Virus record (IMG/VR): IMGVR_UViG_2671180460_000005
DNA: 16,724 bases
Strand: one strand, 5' to 3'
Source of the DNA: a virus
Taxonomy: Duplodnaviria > Heunggongvirae > Uroviricota > Caudoviricetes
Under the pieces are notes generated by a model. The model had not been told where the DNA came from. It did not search any database and saw only the letters and a program-made list of their open reading frames with translations. Shown one piece after another: positions 8,220-15,915 of the stretch (position 1 is the first letter of the stretch; the number at the start of each line of letters is the position of its first letter). Made by a program: the position numbers and the translations under genes.

Positions 8220-8764
8220 AAACGGGGGCTGAAGCCATCCGGGCGCTGGCCACACAACTTCCGTCGTTTCGTCAGAAACTGAGTGACGGCTGGTATCAGG
8301 TACGTATCGCCGGGCGGGATGTCAGCGAGTCCGGAGTAACGGCACAGCTCCATGAGCCGTTACCGGACGGTACGGTGATCCACATTGTTCCCCGGCTTGC
8401 CGGTGCAAAGCATGGCGGAATTTTTCAGACCATCCTGGGGGCTGTGGTTGTTGCGGTAGCCTGGTGGAATCCCGCGGGCTGGCTGGGTGCGGCAGCACTT
8501 ACGGGGATGTATGCCGCCGGGGCCAGTATGATCCTCGGCGGGATAGCGCAGATGCTGACACCGGCCATCAAAACGCCGTCCATGGAGTCCGCGGATAACG
8601 GCAAACAGAACACCTTTTTTTCCTCGCTGGATAATATGATCGCCCAGGGGAATCCGTTACCGGTACTGTATGGTGAGATGCGAGTGGGGTCGCGTGTGAT
8701 TTCACAGAGTATCAGTACTGCTGATGAGGGTGATGGTGGTCAGGTTGTGGTGATTGGTCGCTGA
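8117..8764 (+). CDS. I: Tail tip assembly protein, lambda gpI-like
   Basis: Product MAATHTLPLASPGMARICLYGDLQRFGRRIDLRVKTGAEAIRAL... and C-terminus ...NGKQNTFFSSLDNMIAQGNPLPVLYGEMRVGSRVISQSISTADEGDGGQVVVIGR match lambda gpI as I recall it, with a hydrophobic Gly/Ala-rich middle segment. ATG at 8117 is the first start after an in-frame stop; an alternative ATG lies at 8156. Confidence 0.88.
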   Translation: MAATHTLPLASPGMARICLYGDLQRFGRRIDLRVKTGAEAIRALATQLPSFRQKLSDGWYQVRIAGRDVSESGVTAQLHEPLPDGTVIHIVPRLAGAKHGGIFQTILGAVVVAVAWWNPAGWLGAAALTGMYAAGASMILGGIAQMLTPAIKTPSMESADNGKQNTFFSSLDNMIAQGNPLPVLYGEMRVGSRVISQSISTADEGDGGQVVVIGR

Positions 8765-8783
8765 TGTAAAACGTTTTATGTGA

Positions 8784-8809
8784 AACCGCCTGCGGGCGGT
8801 TTTGTTGTT
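8784..8809 (+). terminator. Terminator-like hairpin with weak T-tract between I and J
   Basis: ACCGCC (8785-8790), loop TGCG, GGCGGT (8795-8800) gives a 6-bp stem, followed by TTTGTTGTT (8801-8809). The T-tract is interrupted, so termination may be weak. Confidence 0.4.
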
Positions 8810-8824
8810 AATGGAGCCAGATAA

Positions 8825-11800
8825 ATGGGTAAAGGTGGCAGCAAGGGGCACACTCCTCGCGAAGCGAAAGATAACCTGAAATCCACGCAGTTACTGAGCG
8901 TGATTGATGCGATCAGTGAAGGGCCGATTGAAGGACCGGTGGACGGAATGAAAAGCGTGCTGCTGAACAGTACGCCGGTGCTGGACAGTGAAGGTAAGGC
9001 CAATTTCTCCGGGGTCACGGTGGTGTTCCGTGCCGGTGAGCAGGAGCAGACTCCGCCGGAGGGTTTTGAATCCTCCGGCTCCGAGACGGTGCTGGGTACG
9101 GAAGTGAAATACGACACGCCGATCACCCGGACCATCACATCAGAAAATATCGACCGCCTGCGTTTTACGTTTGGTGTGCAGGCTCTGGTGGAAACCACGT
9201 CTCAGGGGGACCGCAATCCGTCAGAAGTGAGATTACTGGCCCAGATCCAGCGTAACGGCGCCTGGGTGACAGAAAAAGACATCACCATTAAGGGTAAAAC
9301 CACCTCGCAGTATCTGGCCTCGGTGGTGGTGGATAACCTGCCGCCGCGCCCGTTCAGTATCCGGATGCGCAGGATGACGCCTGACAGCACCACAGACCAG
9401 CTGCAGAATAAAACGCTCTGGTCGTCATACACCGAAATCATCGATGTGAAACAGGGATACCCGAACACGGCACTGGTCGGCGTACAGGTGGATTCAGAGC
9501 AGTTTGGCAGCCAGCAGGTGGGCCGTAATTACCATCTTCGTGGACGCATTCTGCAGGTACCGTCGAACTATGATCCACAGACGCGGCAGTACAGCGGTAT
9601 CTGGGACGGGACACTTAAACCGGCATACAGTAACAACATGGCCTGGTGCCTGTGGGACATGCTCACCCATCCGCGTTATGGCATGGGACAACGTCTCGGG
9701 GCAGCGGAGGTGGATAAATGGACCCTGTATGTTATCGGTCAGTACTGTGACCAGTCAGTACCGGATGGCTATGGTGGCACGGAGCCGCGTATCACCTGTA
9801 ATGCTTATCTGGCATCACAGCGTAAGGCGTGGGACGTTCTCAGTGATTTCTGTTCGGCGATGCGCTGTATGCCGGTATGGAACGGACAGACGCTGACGTT
9901 CGTGCAGGACAGACCGTCGGATAAGGTGTGGACCTATAACCGCGGCAATGTGGTGATGCCGGATGATGGCGCGCCGTTCCGTTACAGCTTCAGCGCCCTG
10001 AAAGACCGCCATAATGCCGTGGAGGTGAACTGGATTGACCCGGATAACGGCTGGGAGACGGCGACGGAGCTGGTTGAAGATACGCAGGCTATTGCCCGTT
10101 ACGGTCGTAACGTCACGAAGATGGAGGCCTTTGGCTGTACCAGTCGGGGGCAGGCACACCGCGCCGGTCTGTGGCTGATTAAAACGGAACTGCTGGAAAC
10201 GCAGACGGTGGACTTCAGCGTGGGTGCAGAAGGGCTTCGCCATGTACCGGGTGACGTCATTGAAGTCTGCGATGATGACTATGCCGGTATCAGTACCGGT
10301 GGTCGCGTGCTGGCGGTGAACAGCGAGACCCGGACGCTGACGCTTGACCGTGAAATCATGCTGCCATCCTCCGGCACCACACTGATAAGCCTGGTTGACG
10401 GAAAGGGTAATCCGGTCAGCGTGGAGGTCAGGTCCGTCACCGACGGCGTGAAGGTGAAAGTGAGCCGGATTCCTGACGGCGTTGCCGGATACAGCGTATG
10501 GGGGCTGAAGCTGCCGACGCTGCGCCAGCGCCTGTTCCGCTGCGTGAGTATCCGTGAGAACGATGACGGCACGTATGCCATCACCGCCGTGCAGCATGTA
10601 CCGGAAAAAGAGGCCATCGTGGATAACGGGGCGCACTTTGACGGCGACCAGAGCGGTACGGTGAAGGGTGTCACGCCGCCAGCGGTGCAGCACCTGACTG
10701 CCGAAGTCACCGCAGACAGCGGGGAATATCAGGTGCTGGCCCGCTGGGACACGCCGAAGGTGGTGAAGGGCGTGAGCTTCCTGCTTCGCCTGACCGTGGC
10801 AGCGGATGACGGCAGTGAACGGCTGGTCAGCACAGCCCGGACGACGGAAACCACATACCGCTTCAGGCAACTGGCGCTGGGGCATTACACGCTGACGGTC
10901 CGGGCGGTAAATGCGTGGGGGCAACAGGGCGATGCGGCGTCGGTCTCTTTCCGGATTGCCGCACCGGCTGCGCCGTCACAGATTGAGCTGACGCCAGGCT
11001 ATTTTCAGATAACGGCGGTCCCGAAACTGGCTGTATATGACCCGACAGTGCAGTTTGAGTTCTGGTTTTCGGAAACGCGGATTGCGGATATCAGGCAGGT
11101 TGAAACCACAGCCCGCTATCTTGGCACGGCGCTGTACTGGATAGCCGCCAGTATCAATATTAAGCCGGGCCATGATTATTATTTTTACGTTCGCAGTGTG
11201 AACACAGTCGGCAAATCGACATTCGTGGAGGCCGTCGGTCGGGCGAGCGATGATGCCGAAGGTTACCTGGATTTTTTCAAAGGCCTGATAACCGAATCCC
11301 ATCTCGGTAAAGAGCTGCTGGAAAAAGTCGACCTGACGGAGGATAACGCCAGCAAACTGGAGCAGTTTTCGAAAGAGTGGAAGGACGCCAACGATAAGTG
11401 GAATGCCATGTGGGGCGTCAAAATTGAGCAGACCAAAGACGGCAAACATTATGTCGCGGGTATTGGCCTCAGCATGGAGGACACGGAGGAAGGCAAACTG
11501 AGCCAGTTTCTGGTTGCCGCTAACCGTATCGCGTTTATTGACCCGGCAAACGGGAATGAAACGCCGATGTTTGTGGCGCAGGGCAATCAGATATTCATGA
11601 ATGACGTGTTCCTGAAACGCCTGACGGCCCCCACCATTACCAGCGGCGGTAATCCTCCGGCATTTTCCCTGACACCTGATGGTCGGCTGACGGCGAAAAA
11701 TGCCGATATCAGTGGTAACGTGAATGCGAACGCCGGGACGCTCAGTAATGTGACGATAGCTGAAAACTGTACGATAAACGGTACGCTGAGGGCGGAAAAA

Positions 11801-12223
11801 ATCGTCGGGGACATTGTAAAGGCGGCGAGCGCGGCTTTTCCGCGCCAGCGTGAAAGCAGTGTGGACTGGCCGTCAGGTACCCGTACTGTCACCGTGACCG
11901 ATGACCATCCTTTTGATCGCCAGATAGTGGTGCTTCCGCTGACGTTTCGCGGAAGTAAGCGTACTGTCAGCGGCAGGACAACGTATTCGATGTGTTATCT
12001 GAAAGTACTGATGAACGGTGCGGTGATTTATGATGGCGCGGCGAACGAGGCGGTACAGGTGTTCTCCCGTATTGTTGACATGCCAGCGGGTCGGGGAAAC
12101 GTGATCCTGACGTTCACGCTCACGTCCACACGGCATTCGGCAGATATTCCGCCGGATACGTTTGCCAGCGATGTGCAGGTTATGGTGATTAAGAAACAGA
12201 CGCTGGGCATCAGCGTGGTCTGA
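8825..12223 (+). CDS. J: Central tail fibre / host specificity protein, lambda gpJ-like, 1132 aa
   Basis: ATG at 8825 with GGAG (8813-8816) upstream. 1132 aa, the same length as lambda gpJ. N-terminus [18 protein letters not shown] and C-terminal roughly 250 aa (...[56 protein letters not shown]...[14 protein letters not shown]) closely resemble lambda J as I recall it. FN3-like segments in the middle. Confidence 0.95.
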
Positions 12224-12239
12224 GTGTGTTACAGAGGTT

Positions 12240-12264
12240 CGTCCGGGAACGGGCGTTTTATTAT
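12240..12264 (+). terminator. Terminator-like hairpin with T/A-rich tract after J
   Basis: CGTCCG (12240-12245), loop GGAA, CGGGCG (12250-12255) gives a 6-bp stem with one G-U pair, followed by TTTTATTAT (12256-12264). Confidence 0.45.
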
Positions 12265-12284
12265 AAAACGGTGAGAGGTGAACG

Positions 12285-12905
12285 ATGCGTAATGTGTGTA
12301 TTGCCGTTGCTGTCTTTGCCGCACTTGCGGTGACAGTCACTCCGGCCCGTGCGGAAGGTGGACAGGGTACGTTTACGGTGGGCTATTTTCAGGTGAAACC
12401 GGGTACATTGCCGTCGTTGTCGGGCGGGGATACCGGTGTGAGTCATCTGAAAGGGATTAACGTGAAGTACCGTTATGAACTGACGGACAGTGTGGGGGTG
12501 ATGGCTTCCCTGGGGTTCGCCGCGTCGAAAAAGAGCAGCACAGTGATGACCGGGGAGGATACGTTTCACTATGAGAGCCTGCGTGGACGTTATGTGAGCG
12601 TGATGGCCGGACCGGTTTTACAAATCAGTAAGCAGGTCAGTGCGTACGCCATGGCCGGAGTGGCTCACAGTCGGTGGTCCGGCAGTACAAGGGATTACCG
12701 TAAGACGGAAATCACTCCCGGGTATATGAAAGAGACGACCACCGCCAGGGACGAAAGTGCAATGCGGCATACCTCAGTGGCGTGGAGTGCAGGTATACAG
12801 ATTAATCCGGCAGCGTCCGTCGTTGTTGATATTGCTTATGAAGGCTCCGGCAGTGGCGACTGGCGTACTGACGGATTCATCGTTGGGGTCGGTTATAAAT
12901 TCTGA
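12285..12905 (+). CDS. lom: Outer-membrane beta-barrel protein of the Ail/Lom/PagC/OmpX family (lysogenic-conversion moron)
   Basis: ATG at 12285 with GAGAGGTG upstream. N-terminal signal peptide MRNVCIAVAVFAALAVTVTPARA followed by EGG. Alternating hydrophobic beta-strand pattern and C-terminal ...VGVGYKF ending in Phe, typical of small outer-membrane barrels. Same position (between J and stf) as lom in lambda. Confidence 0.9.
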   Translation: MRNVCIAVAVFAALAVTVTPARAEGGQGTFTVGYFQVKPGTLPSLSGGDTGVSHLKGINVKYRYELTDSVGVMASLGFAASKKSSTVMTGEDTFHYESLRGRYVSVMAGPVLQISKQVSAYAMAGVAHSRWSGSTRDYRKTEITPGYMKETTTARDESAMRHTSVAWSAGIQINPAASVVVDIAYEGSGSGDWRTDGFIVGVGYKF

Positions 12906-12931
12906 TTAGCCAGGTAACACAGTGTTATGAC

Positions 12932-12958
12932 AGCCCGCCGGAACCGGTGGGCTTTTTT
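12932..12958 (+). terminator. Intrinsic terminator after lom
   Basis: GCCCGCC (12933-12939), loop GGAACC, GGTGGGC (12946-12952) gives a 7-bp stem with one G-U pair, followed by TTTTTTGTGGGG (12953 onward). Confidence 0.6.
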
Positions 12959-12969
12959 GTGGGGTGAAT

Positions 12970-15294
12970 ATGGCAGTAAAGATTTCAGGAGTCCTGAAAG
13001 ACGGCACAGGAAAACCGGTACAGAACTGCACCATTCAGCTGAAAGCCAGACGTAACAGCACCACGGTGGTGATGAACACGGTGGGCTCAGAGAATCCGGA
13101 TGAGGCCGGGCGTTACAGCATGGATGTGGAGTACGGTCAGTACAGTGTCATCCTGCAGGTTGACGGTTTTCCACCATCGCACGCCGGGACCATCACCGTT
13201 TATGAAGATTCACAACCGGGGACGCTGAATGATTTTCTCTGTGCCATGACGGAGGATGATGCCCGGCCGGAGGTGCTGCGCCGTCTTGAACTGATGGTGG
13301 AAGAGGTGGCGCGTAACACGTCCGTGGTGGCACAGAGTACGGAAGACGCGAAGAAATCAGCCGGCGATGCCAGTGCATCAGCTACTCAGGTCGCGGCCCT
13401 TGTGACTGATGCAACTGACTCAGCACGCGCCGCCGGCACGTCCGCCGGGCAGGCTGCATCGTCAGCTCAGGAAGCGTCTTCCGGCGCAGAAGCGGCATCA
13501 GCAAAGGCCGCTGAAGCGGAAAAAAGTGCCGCAGCCGCAGAGTCCTCAAAAAACGCGGCGGCCACCAGTGCCGGTGCGGCGAAAACGTCAGAAACGAATG
13601 CTGCAGCGTCACAACAATCAGCCGCCACGTCTGCCTCCATCGCGACCACGAAAGCGTCAGAGGCCGCCACTTCAGCACGAGATGCGGTGGCCTCAAAAGA
13701 GGCAGCAAAATCATCAGAAACGAACGCATCATCAAGCGCCAGTAGTGCCGCTTCCTCGGCAACGGCGGCAGGAAATTCCGCGAAGGCGGCAAAAACGTCC
13801 GAGACGAATGCCAGGTCATCTGAAACAGCAGCGGAACGGAGCGCCTCTGCCGCGGCAGACGCAAAAACAGCGGCGGCGGTGAGTGCGTCAACGGCATCCA
13901 CGAAGGCGACAGAGGCTGCGGGAAGTGCAGTATCAGCATCGCAGAGCAAAAGTGCGGCAGAAGCGGCGGCAATACGTGCAGAAAATTCGGCAAAACGTGC
14001 AGAAGATATAGCTTCAGCTGTCGCGCTTGAGGATGCGGACACAACGAGAAAGGGGATAGTGCAGCTCAGCAGTGCAACCAACAGCACGTCTGAAACGCTT
14101 GCTGCAACGCCAAAGGCGGTTAAGGTGGTAATGGATGAAACGAACAGAAAAGCCCCACTGGACAGTCCGGCACTGACCGGAACGCCAACAGCACCAACCG
14201 CGCTCAGGGGAACAAACAATACCCAGATTGCGAACACCGCTTTTGTACTGGCCGCGATTGCAGACGTTATCGACGCGTCACCTGACGCACTGAATACGCT
14301 GAATGAACTGGCCGCAGCGCTCGGGAATGATCCAGATTTTGCTACCACCATGACTAACGCGCTTGCGGGTAAACAACCGAAGAATGCGACACTGACGGCG
14401 CTGGCAGGGCTTTCCACGGCGAAAAATAAATTACCGTATTTTACGGAAAATGATGCCGCCAGCCTGACTGAACTGACTCAGGTTGGCAGGGATATTCTGG
14501 CAAAAAATTCCGTTGCAGATGTTCTTGAATACCTTGGGGCCGGAGAGAATTCGGCCTTTCCGGCAGGTGCGCCGATCCCGTGGCCATCAGATATCGTTCC
14601 GTCTGGCTACGTCCTGATGCAGGGGCAGGCGTTTGACAAATCAGCCTACCCAAAACTTGCTGTCGCGTATCCATCGGGTGTGCTTCCTGATATGCGAGGC
14701 TGGACAATCAAGGGGAAACCCGCCAGCGGTCGTGCTGTATTGTCTCAGGAACAGGATGGAATTAAGTCGCACACCCACAGTGCCAGTGCATCCGGTACGG
14801 ATTTGGGGACGAAAACCACATCGTCGTTTGATTACGGGACGAAAACAACAGGCAGTTTCGATTACGGCACCAAATCGACGAATAACACGGGGGCTCATGC
14901 TCACAGTCTGAGCGGTTCAACAGGTGCCGCAGGTGCTCATGCCCACACAAGTGGTTTAAGGATGAACAGTTCTGGCTGGAGTCAGTATGGAACAGCAACC
15001 ATTACAGGAAGTTTATCCACAGTTAAAGGAACCAACACACAGGGTATTGCTTATTTATCGAAAACGGACAGTCAGGGCAACCACAGTCACTCATTGTCCG
15101 GTACAGCCGTGAGTGCCGGTGCACATGCGCATACAGTTGGTATTGGTGCGCACCAGCATCCGGTTGTTATCGGTGCTCATGCCCATTCTTTCAGTATTGG
15201 TTCACACGGACATACCATTACTGTTGACGCTGCGGGTAACGCGGAAAACACCGTTAAAAACATCGCATTTAACTATATTGTGAGGCTTGCATAA
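12970..15294 (+). CDS. stf: Side tail fibre protein; lambda Stf-like N-terminal and shaft regions, different C-terminal receptor-binding region with His-x-His repeats
   Basis: ATG at 12970 gives [26 protein letters not shown]..., which matches the lambda Stf N-terminus as I recall it; GTG at 12964 is an in-frame alternative. Long Ala/Ser/Thr-rich repeat shaft, then the conserved fibre motif [24 protein letters not shown], then ...[40 protein letters not shown]... as in P2 H-type fibres, then a C-terminal block with eight H-x-H motifs. Confidence 0.92.
13320..14040 (+). repeat. Ala/Ser/Thr-rich low-complexity repeat region encoding the Stf shaft
   Basis: About 240 codons dominated by GCN, TCN and ACN codons, with recurring units such as AKTSETNA (near 13577-13602 and 13787-13812) and SSETNASS. 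It generates long spurious ORFs in the other frames and on the minus strand. Confidence 0.8.
14770..15213 (+). repeat. His-x-His repeat array encoding the Stf distal tip
   Basis: Eight H-x-H motifs (HTH, AHAH twice, HSH, AHAH, AHQH, AHAH, HGH) embedded in Gly/Ser-rich spacers, with recurring nucleotide units GGTGCNCATGCNCA. Confidence 0.8.
14806..14886 (+). repeat. Tandem 30-nt (10-codon) repeat inside stf
   Basis: GGGACGAAAACCACATCGTCGTTTGATTAC ([10 protein letters not shown]), then GGGACGAAAACAACAGGCAGTTTCGATTAC ([10 protein letters not shown]), then the partial unit GGCACCAAATCGACGAATAAC (GTKSTNN). Confidence 0.85.
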
Positions 15295-15875
15295 TGGCAT
15301 TCAGAATGAGTGAACTACCACGGACCATAAAAATTTATAATCTGCTGGCCGGAACCAATGAATTTATTGGTGAAGGTGATGCATACATTCCACCTCATAC
15401 AGGTCTGCCAGCAAACAGTACCGATATTGCACCGCCAGATATTCCGGCTGGCTTCGTGGCTGTTTTCAACAGTGATGAGGCATCGTGGCATCTCGTTGAA
15501 GACCATCGGGGTAAAACGGTTTATGACGTGGCATCAGGGGATGCATTATTTATTTCTGAACCCGGTCCGTTACCGGAAAATGTCACCTGGTTATCCCCGG
15601 ATGGAGAGTATCAGAAGTGGAACGGTACAGCCTGGGTGAAAGATGCAGAAGCAGAAAGACTGTTCCGGATCCGGGAGGCGGAAGAAACAAAAAACAGCCT
15701 GATGCAGGTAGCCAGTGAGCATATTTCACCGCTTCAGGATGCTGCAGATCTGGAAATTGCAACGGAGGAAGAAACCTCATTGCTGGCGGCCTGGAAGAAG
15801 TATCGGGTGTTGCTGAACCGGGTTGATACATCTTTAGCGCCGGAAATTGAGTGGCCGCAGCAACCTGTCAGTTAA
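15294..15875 (+). CDS. tfa: Tail fibre assembly chaperone, Tfa-like
   Basis: ATG at 15294 overlaps the stf stop as TAATG. 193 aa. It sits directly downstream of the fibre gene, and its N-terminal half (...[29 protein letters not shown]...[14 protein letters not shown]...) resembles the lambda/T4 gp38-type Tfa family as I recall it. Confidence 0.85.
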
Positions 15876-15882
15876 AGCATTG

Positions 15883-15903
15883 CCGGCGAAAGCTGGCTTT
15901 TTT
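15883..15903 (+). terminator. Terminator-like hairpin (GAAA tetraloop) with T-tract after tfa
   Basis: GCCGGC (15883-15888), loop GAAA, GCTGGC (15893-15898) gives a 6-bp stem with one G-U pair, followed by TTTTT (15899-15903). Confidence 0.5.
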
Positions 15904-15915
15904 GGGGAAAAATTT

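Follow-up and report, generated by a model that had tools for sequence, protein, structure and literature searches.

The gene that lies between the tail tip gene J and the side tail fibre gene stf in this stretch of phage DNA (16,724 nucleotides, hereafter the window) is the lom gene of lambda. It is probably a lambda accessory gene of the moron type, placed in the distal late tail operon and expressed in two modes. The gene and its flanking hairpins are already known lambda biology and contain no new element. A preliminary description of the window had presented lom as an insulated moron cassette, bracketed by terminator-like hairpins and expressed from the prophage. Part of that description stands: hairpins bracket the gene, lom has its own Shine-Dalgarno (SD) sequence, it is present in some relatives and absent from others, transcription in lysogens has been reported, and Lom has been listed among moron products (PMC3594210). 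The rest does not, as lom shows no compositional difference from its neighbours, the bracket contains no recognizable promoter, and similar hairpins occur beside other genes of the window.

The window is a lambdoid mosaic. By megablast, positions 8518–15856 align with the lambda genome (NC_001416) at 94% nucleotide identity and a constant offset of +6680, positions 6769–8444 align at 87%, and the rest of the window has no megablast match. Around lom the identity is ~99% (11800–13300; 99.1% over 11900–13300), and only 13 substitutions separate the two sequences in 12000–13300. The top E. coli genome matches to the window are prophages, at 99.4%. J, lom, stf, tfa and a second stf-like gene are all on the + strand. 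J (8825–12223, stop codon 12221–12223) encodes a tail tip/host-specificity protein of 1132 aa with Pfam Ig_GpJ_C and other J domains. Its C-terminal receptor-binding domain (RBD), which begins at ~11775 (J residue ~985), is an exchangeable mosaic module. Downstream of lom, stf (12970–15294) encodes a side tail fibre of 774 aa with the Pfam domains phage_tail_N, Phage_fiber_2 and Collar; it is intact in the window, whereas in the lambda reference it is broken into orf-401 and orf-314. It is followed by the tail fibre assembly gene tfa (15294–15875; Pfam Caudo_TAP, E 2.5e-43) and by a second gene for an Stf-like tail fibre (15916–16724), which has 41% identity to the Stf N-terminus (E 3e-29) and is partial, running off the end of the window.

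lom extends from an ATG at 12285 to a stop codon at 12903–12905 and encodes an outer-membrane β-barrel protein of the Ail/Lom/OmpX family, 206 aa in length. The preliminary assignment to lom was confirmed by the Pfam Ail_Lom profile (PF06316), which scored 185.4 bits against a cut-off of 23 (E 1.3e-54) and matched at full length (Lom residues 1–206, profile positions 1–199 of 199). 204/206 residues are identical to lambda Lom, the two differences being H27Q and M136R. Read by eye, the protein starts with MRNVCIAVAVFAALAVTVTPARA followed by EGG, a typical Sec signal peptide encoded by 12285–12353 and ending in ARA before E, and its C-terminus, GYKF, supplies the terminal Phe, an aromatic residue for outer-membrane insertion; both features had been noted before. 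Matches in the PDB included 9wso_C (Lom; E 1e-132), Ail (3qra; 2e-14) and the OmpX 1qj8 family (4e-10), and Lom is predicted to be an 8-stranded barrel of the Ail/OmpX type. A search for the partner of Lom in 9wso did not find that entry among the PDB matches of J or of Stf. The SD sequence previously attributed to lom was also verified. GAGAGGT (12273–12279) ends 5 nt before the ATG and is kept in nearly all lom types, and the GenBank record of lambda imm434 has a ribosome-binding site annotated at the equivalent place (18955–18959).

Both of the hairpins with T-tracts that had been described beside lom were upheld by a terminator scan, by folding and by their conservation in relatives. Hairpin 1 (12240–12264, + strand), which follows J, has a 6-bp stem (CGTCCG-GGAA-CGGGCG, 12240–12255) and then TTTTATTAT (12256–12264). 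Hairpin 2 (12932–12959, + strand), which follows lom, has a 9-bp stem (AGCCCGCCG-GAAC-CGGTGGGCT, 12932–12953) and then TTTTTTGT, and is situated immediately upstream of the stf SD (stf ATG at 12970). Each fits the form of an intrinsic terminator, with a GC-rich stem, a short loop and an adjoining U-tract, and hairpin 2 resembles a strong one. Folded alone, hairpin 1 gave −9.7 kcal/mol (z −2.1), a value equalled by 8/200 shuffles, and hairpin 2 gave −17.7 kcal/mol (z −3.4), with 0/200 shuffles as stable. The terminator scan of the window produced 33 sites, compared with 16.3 ± 3.9 in shuffles; both hairpins were among them, and hairpin 2 had the top rank in the window. Base for base, both are identical to those of lambda. 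The lambda-type hairpin 1 is the weakest of its family: its stem has 6 bp, one of them a G-U pair, compared with 8–10 bp in other types, and its T-tract is interrupted. Tandem terminators (t'J) were reportedly mapped to this region of lambda by Luk and Szybalski (1983). The GenBank lambda records, inspected for terminators and promoters, carry annotation of neither. Rfam returned no family below E 0.5 on 12100–13100, Trp_leader and isrA lying far under their gathering scores.

Such hairpins are not peculiar to lom, and comparable ones are found downstream of tfa and of the major tail and major head genes. Hairpin 3 (15882–15903, + strand), returned by the terminator scan after tfa, consists of GCCGGC-GAAA-GCTGGC (15882–15897) and TTTTTT. 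It sits 12 nt before the second stf-like gene (15916) and repeats the layout of hairpin 2, so that the arrangement of hairpin, T-tract and SD precedes this gene as well (15882–15916). Strong + strand hairpins are also present at 124–142, between the major head gene and an FI-like gene, and at 2671–2688, downstream of the major tail gene. Hairpins thus punctuate the distal late operon at every module boundary.

For comparison with relatives, 159 related IMG/VR loci were collected using Lom and Stf N-terminal domain queries, and J, lom and stf were mapped in each. Among the 80 loci selected by stf alone, lom was immediately upstream of stf in 76, J was directly upstream in 3, and 1 had another arrangement. 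The three main Lom types are ~99%, 60% and 46% identical to Lom of the window. Distinct spacers were counted in ~150 related prophage loci, and a GC hairpin with a perfect stem followed by a T-tract was found in 33/33 J-lom spacers and 29/30 lom-stf spacers. The stem of hairpin 1 varies in sequence by lineage with its pairing kept. Compensatory changes occur in 4/8 pairs (26 cells), and the observed covariation score was reached by 0/500 shuffles, slid controls being lower; two lambda-type rows of this alignment were out of register and were counted as unpaired. The lom-stf spacer is nearly invariant across Lom types, and so is the stem of hairpin 2, where only G-C to G-U changes were seen and covariation is uninformative. 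In one locus (L099) and in spacer variants of 149–151 nt, unrelated hairpin and T-tract sequences occupy the same place before stf.

The three stf-selected loci in which J adjoins stf (L094, L110 and L115) and the prophage of E. coli 1303 share a lom-less arrangement of J, a 58-nt spacer with one hybrid hairpin, and stf. Over the junction query L094 is identical to the E. coli 1303 prophage, and two more complete E. coli genomes match the lom-less junction contiguously. In the search of E. coli genomes with this junction, the best 3 matches were contiguous, and the next 12 listed were in two pieces that span ~672 nt more. Up to and including TTTTTTATT, the left part of the lom-less spacer can be aligned to hairpin 1 in relatives that carry lom. 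Its right part, TGTGGAACGAATATG, corresponds to the final stretch of the lom-stf spacer, and the joint falls within the T-tracts. The unit of presence or absence therefore consists of the SD, lom and hairpin 2, joined in T-tracts. In E. coli 1303 the stf beside the lom-less junction is a truncated pseudogene, and this junction may represent a secondary deletion instead of an ancestral empty site.

The joints at which alleles are exchanged were mapped by comparing the window with loci of other Lom types, in which Lom is 46–61% identical. Identity is high to ~11775, then 50–70% across the C-terminal part of J, the J-lom spacer and most of lom, until at ~12825 it rises to 88–96% and stays at that level past hairpin 2 into stf. 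A conserved junction block (12825–12969, + strand) comprises the final ~80 nt of lom and the 64-nt lom-stf spacer; it is continuous with the conserved 5' end of stf and forms the right-hand recombination joint for lom alleles. Given this jump in identity, hairpin 2 and the 3'-terminal ~80 nt of lom are part of the block conserved with stf. Hairpin 2 also remains beside stf in two loci where insertions part lom from stf (L023 and L060). It is inherited with stf under every Lom type and does not follow the lom allele. Besides those at ~11775 and ~12825, a mosaic joint lies at the J stop/hairpin 1. In Lom type 2, five J-RBD clusters are joined at this point to the same lom, and the hairpin-1 stems differ while the sequence from the T-tract on is the same, so the stem of hairpin 1 goes with J. 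In this data set lambda-type Lom was found only with the lambda-type J RBD, and strongly divergent Lom types were never associated with the same J-RBD cluster. Strict co-inheritance of Lom and J RBD was ruled out by the five clusters of Lom type 2, as the J RBD swaps independently.

A difference in base composition or codon usage between 12285–12905 and the flanking tail genes had been proposed as a check of the moron reading, with its absence to count against that reading, and none was found. lom has a GC content of 0.549 and a GC3 of 0.58, compared with 0.569 and 0.666 for J, 0.550 and 0.507 for stf, and 0.490 and 0.443 for tfa. Scored with tail-gene usage, the codon-usage likelihood of lom is at the 26th percentile of size-matched tail-gene chunks. 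GC and GC3 are within the spread of J, stf and the tail-gene chunks, and there is no compositional sign of foreign origin. PMC3594210, which lists Lom among moron-encoded proteins, defines a moron by its own promoter and terminator and its deviant GC content. lom is extra DNA missing from collinear relatives, though the lom-less state is rare (3/80), and it has a predicted downstream terminator of its own in hairpin 2, though this is inherited with stf; its composition is not deviant.

Only 20 nt separate the T-tract of hairpin 1 from the lom ATG. No promoter fits inside the hairpin bracket, therefore, and any lom promoter must overlap or precede hairpin 1. Sigma-70 promoters were sought by consensus and with a custom PWM, in the window as well as in loci that represent the other Lom types. 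The sigma-70 consensus scan found no + strand promoter near lom, and neither method found a site above chance in 11900–12284; a non-consensus or activator-dependent promoter may escape such a search. The weakness of the promoter evidence had been conceded from the start, with a TATAAA element at 12262–12267 and no good −35, and this assessment was correct. As a candidate −10 on the + strand, TATAAA has a PWM score of 4.64, which is no better than chance. Its best −35 partner, TCGTCC, fits the consensus at 3/6 positions, and although TCGTCC-17-TATAAA is at the 99.8th percentile of window positions, ~290 sites are equal or better. In the 3' end of J the best PWM scores belong to weak candidates at 11939 (CTGACG-17-TACTGT) and 12075 (TTGACA-16-AAACGT), which ~20 other places in the window equal. 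By PWM, none of the candidates keeps its position across the representatives of the Lom types, because the J 3' end is a hypervariable module. The only recurrent hit, TTTATT-17-AATTAT/AATCAT, was rejected since it overlaps the start codon and cannot serve lom. A literature search for 'lom promoter' returned a single paper (PMC2147009), a microarray study in which lysogens gave no lom signal and which describes the promoter as little known.

Published work places lom expression in both states of the phage. According to reviews and array work, lambda lom is transcribed at a low level in lysogens (PMC7067206, PMC1151598). According to PMC12366544 (2025), which cites ribosome profiling, Lom is constitutive from the prophage and rises dramatically late in infection. 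Given this rise, lom also belongs to the late transcript, contrary to the earlier proposal that it is independent of the late operon. The same paper reports that overexpressed Lom strongly protects against lambda-vir and not against T7, and proposes that Lom prevents non-productive adsorption. Promotion of adhesion by Lom has also been published. lomR, in the Rac remnant, is among the least expressed genes of K-12 (PMC10392735).

We felt that these data are best explained by an accessory gene with two modes of expression. In lytic growth, by analogy with established lambda biology, Q-modified RNA polymerase would traverse both hairpins, transcribing lom and then stf-tfa, and the SD of lom would drive abundant translation; Q and pR' are outside the window. 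In the repressed prophage, low, constitutive lom mRNA may come from a weak promoter that overlaps hairpin 1 or lies upstream of it, and hairpin 2 would end this mRNA before stf. Hairpin 1 would limit un-antiterminated transcription entering from J. The hairpins would be intrinsic terminators that mark the boundaries J/lom/stf-tfa/stf2; they also coincide with recombination joints. Weighing against this explanation are the lack of an above-chance or positionally conserved promoter, the array study with no lysogen signal (PMC2147009), the low expression of lomR (PMC10392735), the unremarkable composition of lom, and the doubt over whether the E. coli 1303 junction is an empty site.

Three other explanations were weighed. 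It is unlikely that lom is a purely late gene with no promoter of its own, in which case the lysogen signal would stem from spontaneously induced cells or leaky read-through, and the hairpins would provide no insulation, acting instead as intra-operon attenuators or 3' mRNA stabilizers that set the amounts of J, Lom and Stf. This would agree with the lack of an above-chance promoter or of space for one between hairpin 1 and the ATG, with a composition that matches the tail genes, with the fixed place in 76/80 stf-selected loci, like that of a regular operon member, and with the similar hairpins after other late genes. However, Lom is said to have been made in immune minicells by Reeve and Shaw in 1979, and Barondess and Beckwith reportedly recovered active lom-phoA fusions in lysogens in 1990. 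Transcription or translation in repressed lysogens is also stated in PMC7067206, PMC1151598 and PMC12366544. The remaining literature that favors a purely late lom comprises the array study without a lysogen signal (PMC2147009), the strong late-infection rise in PMC12366544, and the rare expression of lomR in K-12 (PMC10392735).

It is more improbable still that the promoter is in the 3' end of J and that hairpin 1 serves as a leader attenuator or 5' stabilizer of lom mRNA, with no role as an upstream insulator. It is true that a promoter would have to lie upstream of hairpin 1 or overlap it, that no hairpin 1 in the family is weaker than the lambda-type one, and that weak candidates are present at 11939 and 12075. 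These are matched in score by ~20 other window sites, however, the J 3' end is hypervariable, and a leader hairpin with a U-tract would terminate most transcripts. Finally, the hairpins might have no role in transcription and be only conserved linkers that provide homology for modular recombination, as might be read from the coincidence of mosaic joints with hairpin 1 and from the indel joint in the T-tracts. We give this very little credence. The compensatory changes in hairpin 1 suggest that selection acts on the structure of the RNA or DNA rather than on homology, unrelated hairpins with T-tracts stand at the same place before stf (L099 and the 149–151-nt variants), and the right-hand allelic joint is inside lom at ~12825 and not at hairpin 2.

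As a discovery, lom has little value. The gene, its place, its family and the fact that lysogens express it have long been known, and lambda has the same hairpins. Sequence alone puts any lom promoter outside the hairpin bracket. The comparative data do define a mobile unit of SD, lom and terminator joined in T-tracts, as well as allelic recombination joints at the J stop/hairpin 1 and ~80 nt before the lom stop. Lom, for which a block of lambda infection has recently been reported, is almost always linked to the receptor-binding genes. A tentative proposal, which we regard as possible but doubtful, is that Lom is no free-riding virulence moron and instead is a working part of the receptor-binding region that blocks adsorption of its own kind, is made in trace amounts in lysogens and in bulk late, and is type-matched to the adsorption apparatus. 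If true, this would explain both the fixed position of lom between J and stf in ~95% of relatives and the flanking terminators, which would form a two-level, Q-gated expression switch. A late adsorption block by Lom has already been raised in PMC12366544, and only the allele matching and the terminator switch would be new.

The closest known system is lambda lom itself (NC_001416, 18965–19585), which is the same gene in the same position between J and stf, with identical hairpins and SD. The intergenic sequence differs by one substitution, 12270 being G in the window and A in lambda. Elsewhere the differences are larger: the head and proximal tail genes of the window are not lambda-like at the nucleotide level, J is ~94% identical, and a second stf-like gene stands in place of ea47. 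lambda bor resembles lom in its reported expression in lysogens and its effect on host surface phenotypes (PMC7067206, PMC1151598), but it is a lipoprotein gene near the lysis genes, a region outside the window. With the Ail/OmpX/PagC/Rck family (PF06316), Lom shares the full profile match, the Sec signal peptide and the C-terminal Phe. Unlike Ail and OmpX, Lom is phage-borne and encoded within a tail operon, and it exceeds mature Ail or OmpX in length by ~50 residues, with an alignment that spans only Lom residues 52–206.

The morons of HK97 and HK022 as defined by Juhala and Hendrix, for which PMC3594210 gives a summary, are, like lom, extra genes between late genes that are adjacent in a few relatives, and they likewise have a downstream terminator, reported expression in the repressed prophage and a function in host phenotype. 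In contrast to them, lom has neither deviant GC content or codon usage nor a recognizable promoter, or room for one, inside the indel unit. Far from a sporadic addition, lom is carried by ~95% of relatives, and it doubles as a late gene with strong expression (PMC12366544).

Four of the prophage loci related to the window at J-lom-stf (L042, L043, L046 and L137) have a lom-stf spacer of 149–151 nt with an additional hairpin. The spacers of L042 and L043 also contain the extended -10-like element TGGTATAAT, and that of L137 carries TGTTATGAT. The element in these three loci is a candidate promoter for the tail fibre gene. In L023, an insert of ∼2 kb (3981–6007) separates lom from stf, and in L060 an inverted-repeat sequence lies upstream of 5547, on the 5′ side of a second stf copy. 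Both are possibly IS elements. In both loci the terminator-like hairpin of the lom-stf spacer (12932–12959 in the window) remains joined to stf. A J-stf junction without lom was found at L163, which is located in E. coli 1303 (NZ_CP009166, 1361629–1362790). The annotation gives the stf gene adjoining this junction as a truncated pseudogene, and the prophage thus appears to be in decay.

Type 2 lom alleles were compared between L140 and three other loci, L130, L064 and L125. Identity falls to 57% in a patch at lom nt ∼204–233, whereas the rest of the gene is 93–100% identical. The patch may encode a surface loop under diversifying selection. The structure of lambda Lom has been solved, with Lom as chain C of PDB 9wso. 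This entry was absent from the matches when J and Stf were used as queries.

Strong hairpins followed by a T-tract were also identified elsewhere in the window, one at 124–142, separating the major head gene from the FI-like gene, and one at 2671–2688, directly 3′ of the major tail gene. The ATG of the ORF at 2679–3098 falls in the loop of the latter hairpin. Since the family match of this ORF opens only at residue 11, its real start may lie further downstream. Rfam IS009 (RF02111) produced a 205-bit match at 15637–15835, wholly within the coding sequence of tfa, and the 'RNA family' here coincides with a conserved tail-fibre-assembly gene.

The phage of the window is a mosaic. Megablast gave no match to lambda across 1–6768, where the head and proximal tail genes resemble those of lambda at the protein family level only, and 87% identity at 6769–8444. 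Near lom, the sole intergenic difference from lambda is at 12270, between the T-tract of the J-lom hairpin and the Shine-Dalgarno sequence, where the window has G, in common with L090, and lambda has A. Beyond tfa, the window has a second Stf-like tail fibre gene (15916–16724) in place of the lambda ea47 region. Its identity to the N-terminus of Stf is 41%, a hairpin and T-tract of its own (15882–15903) lie ahead of it, and it is partial as it crosses the window end; mapping of the related loci located this same additional copy in L007, L086 and L090 as well. Finally, stf is divided into orf-401 and orf-314 in the lambda reference, whereas in the window it is a single intact ORF of 774 amino acids (12970–15294), and this phage should therefore produce side tail fibres.
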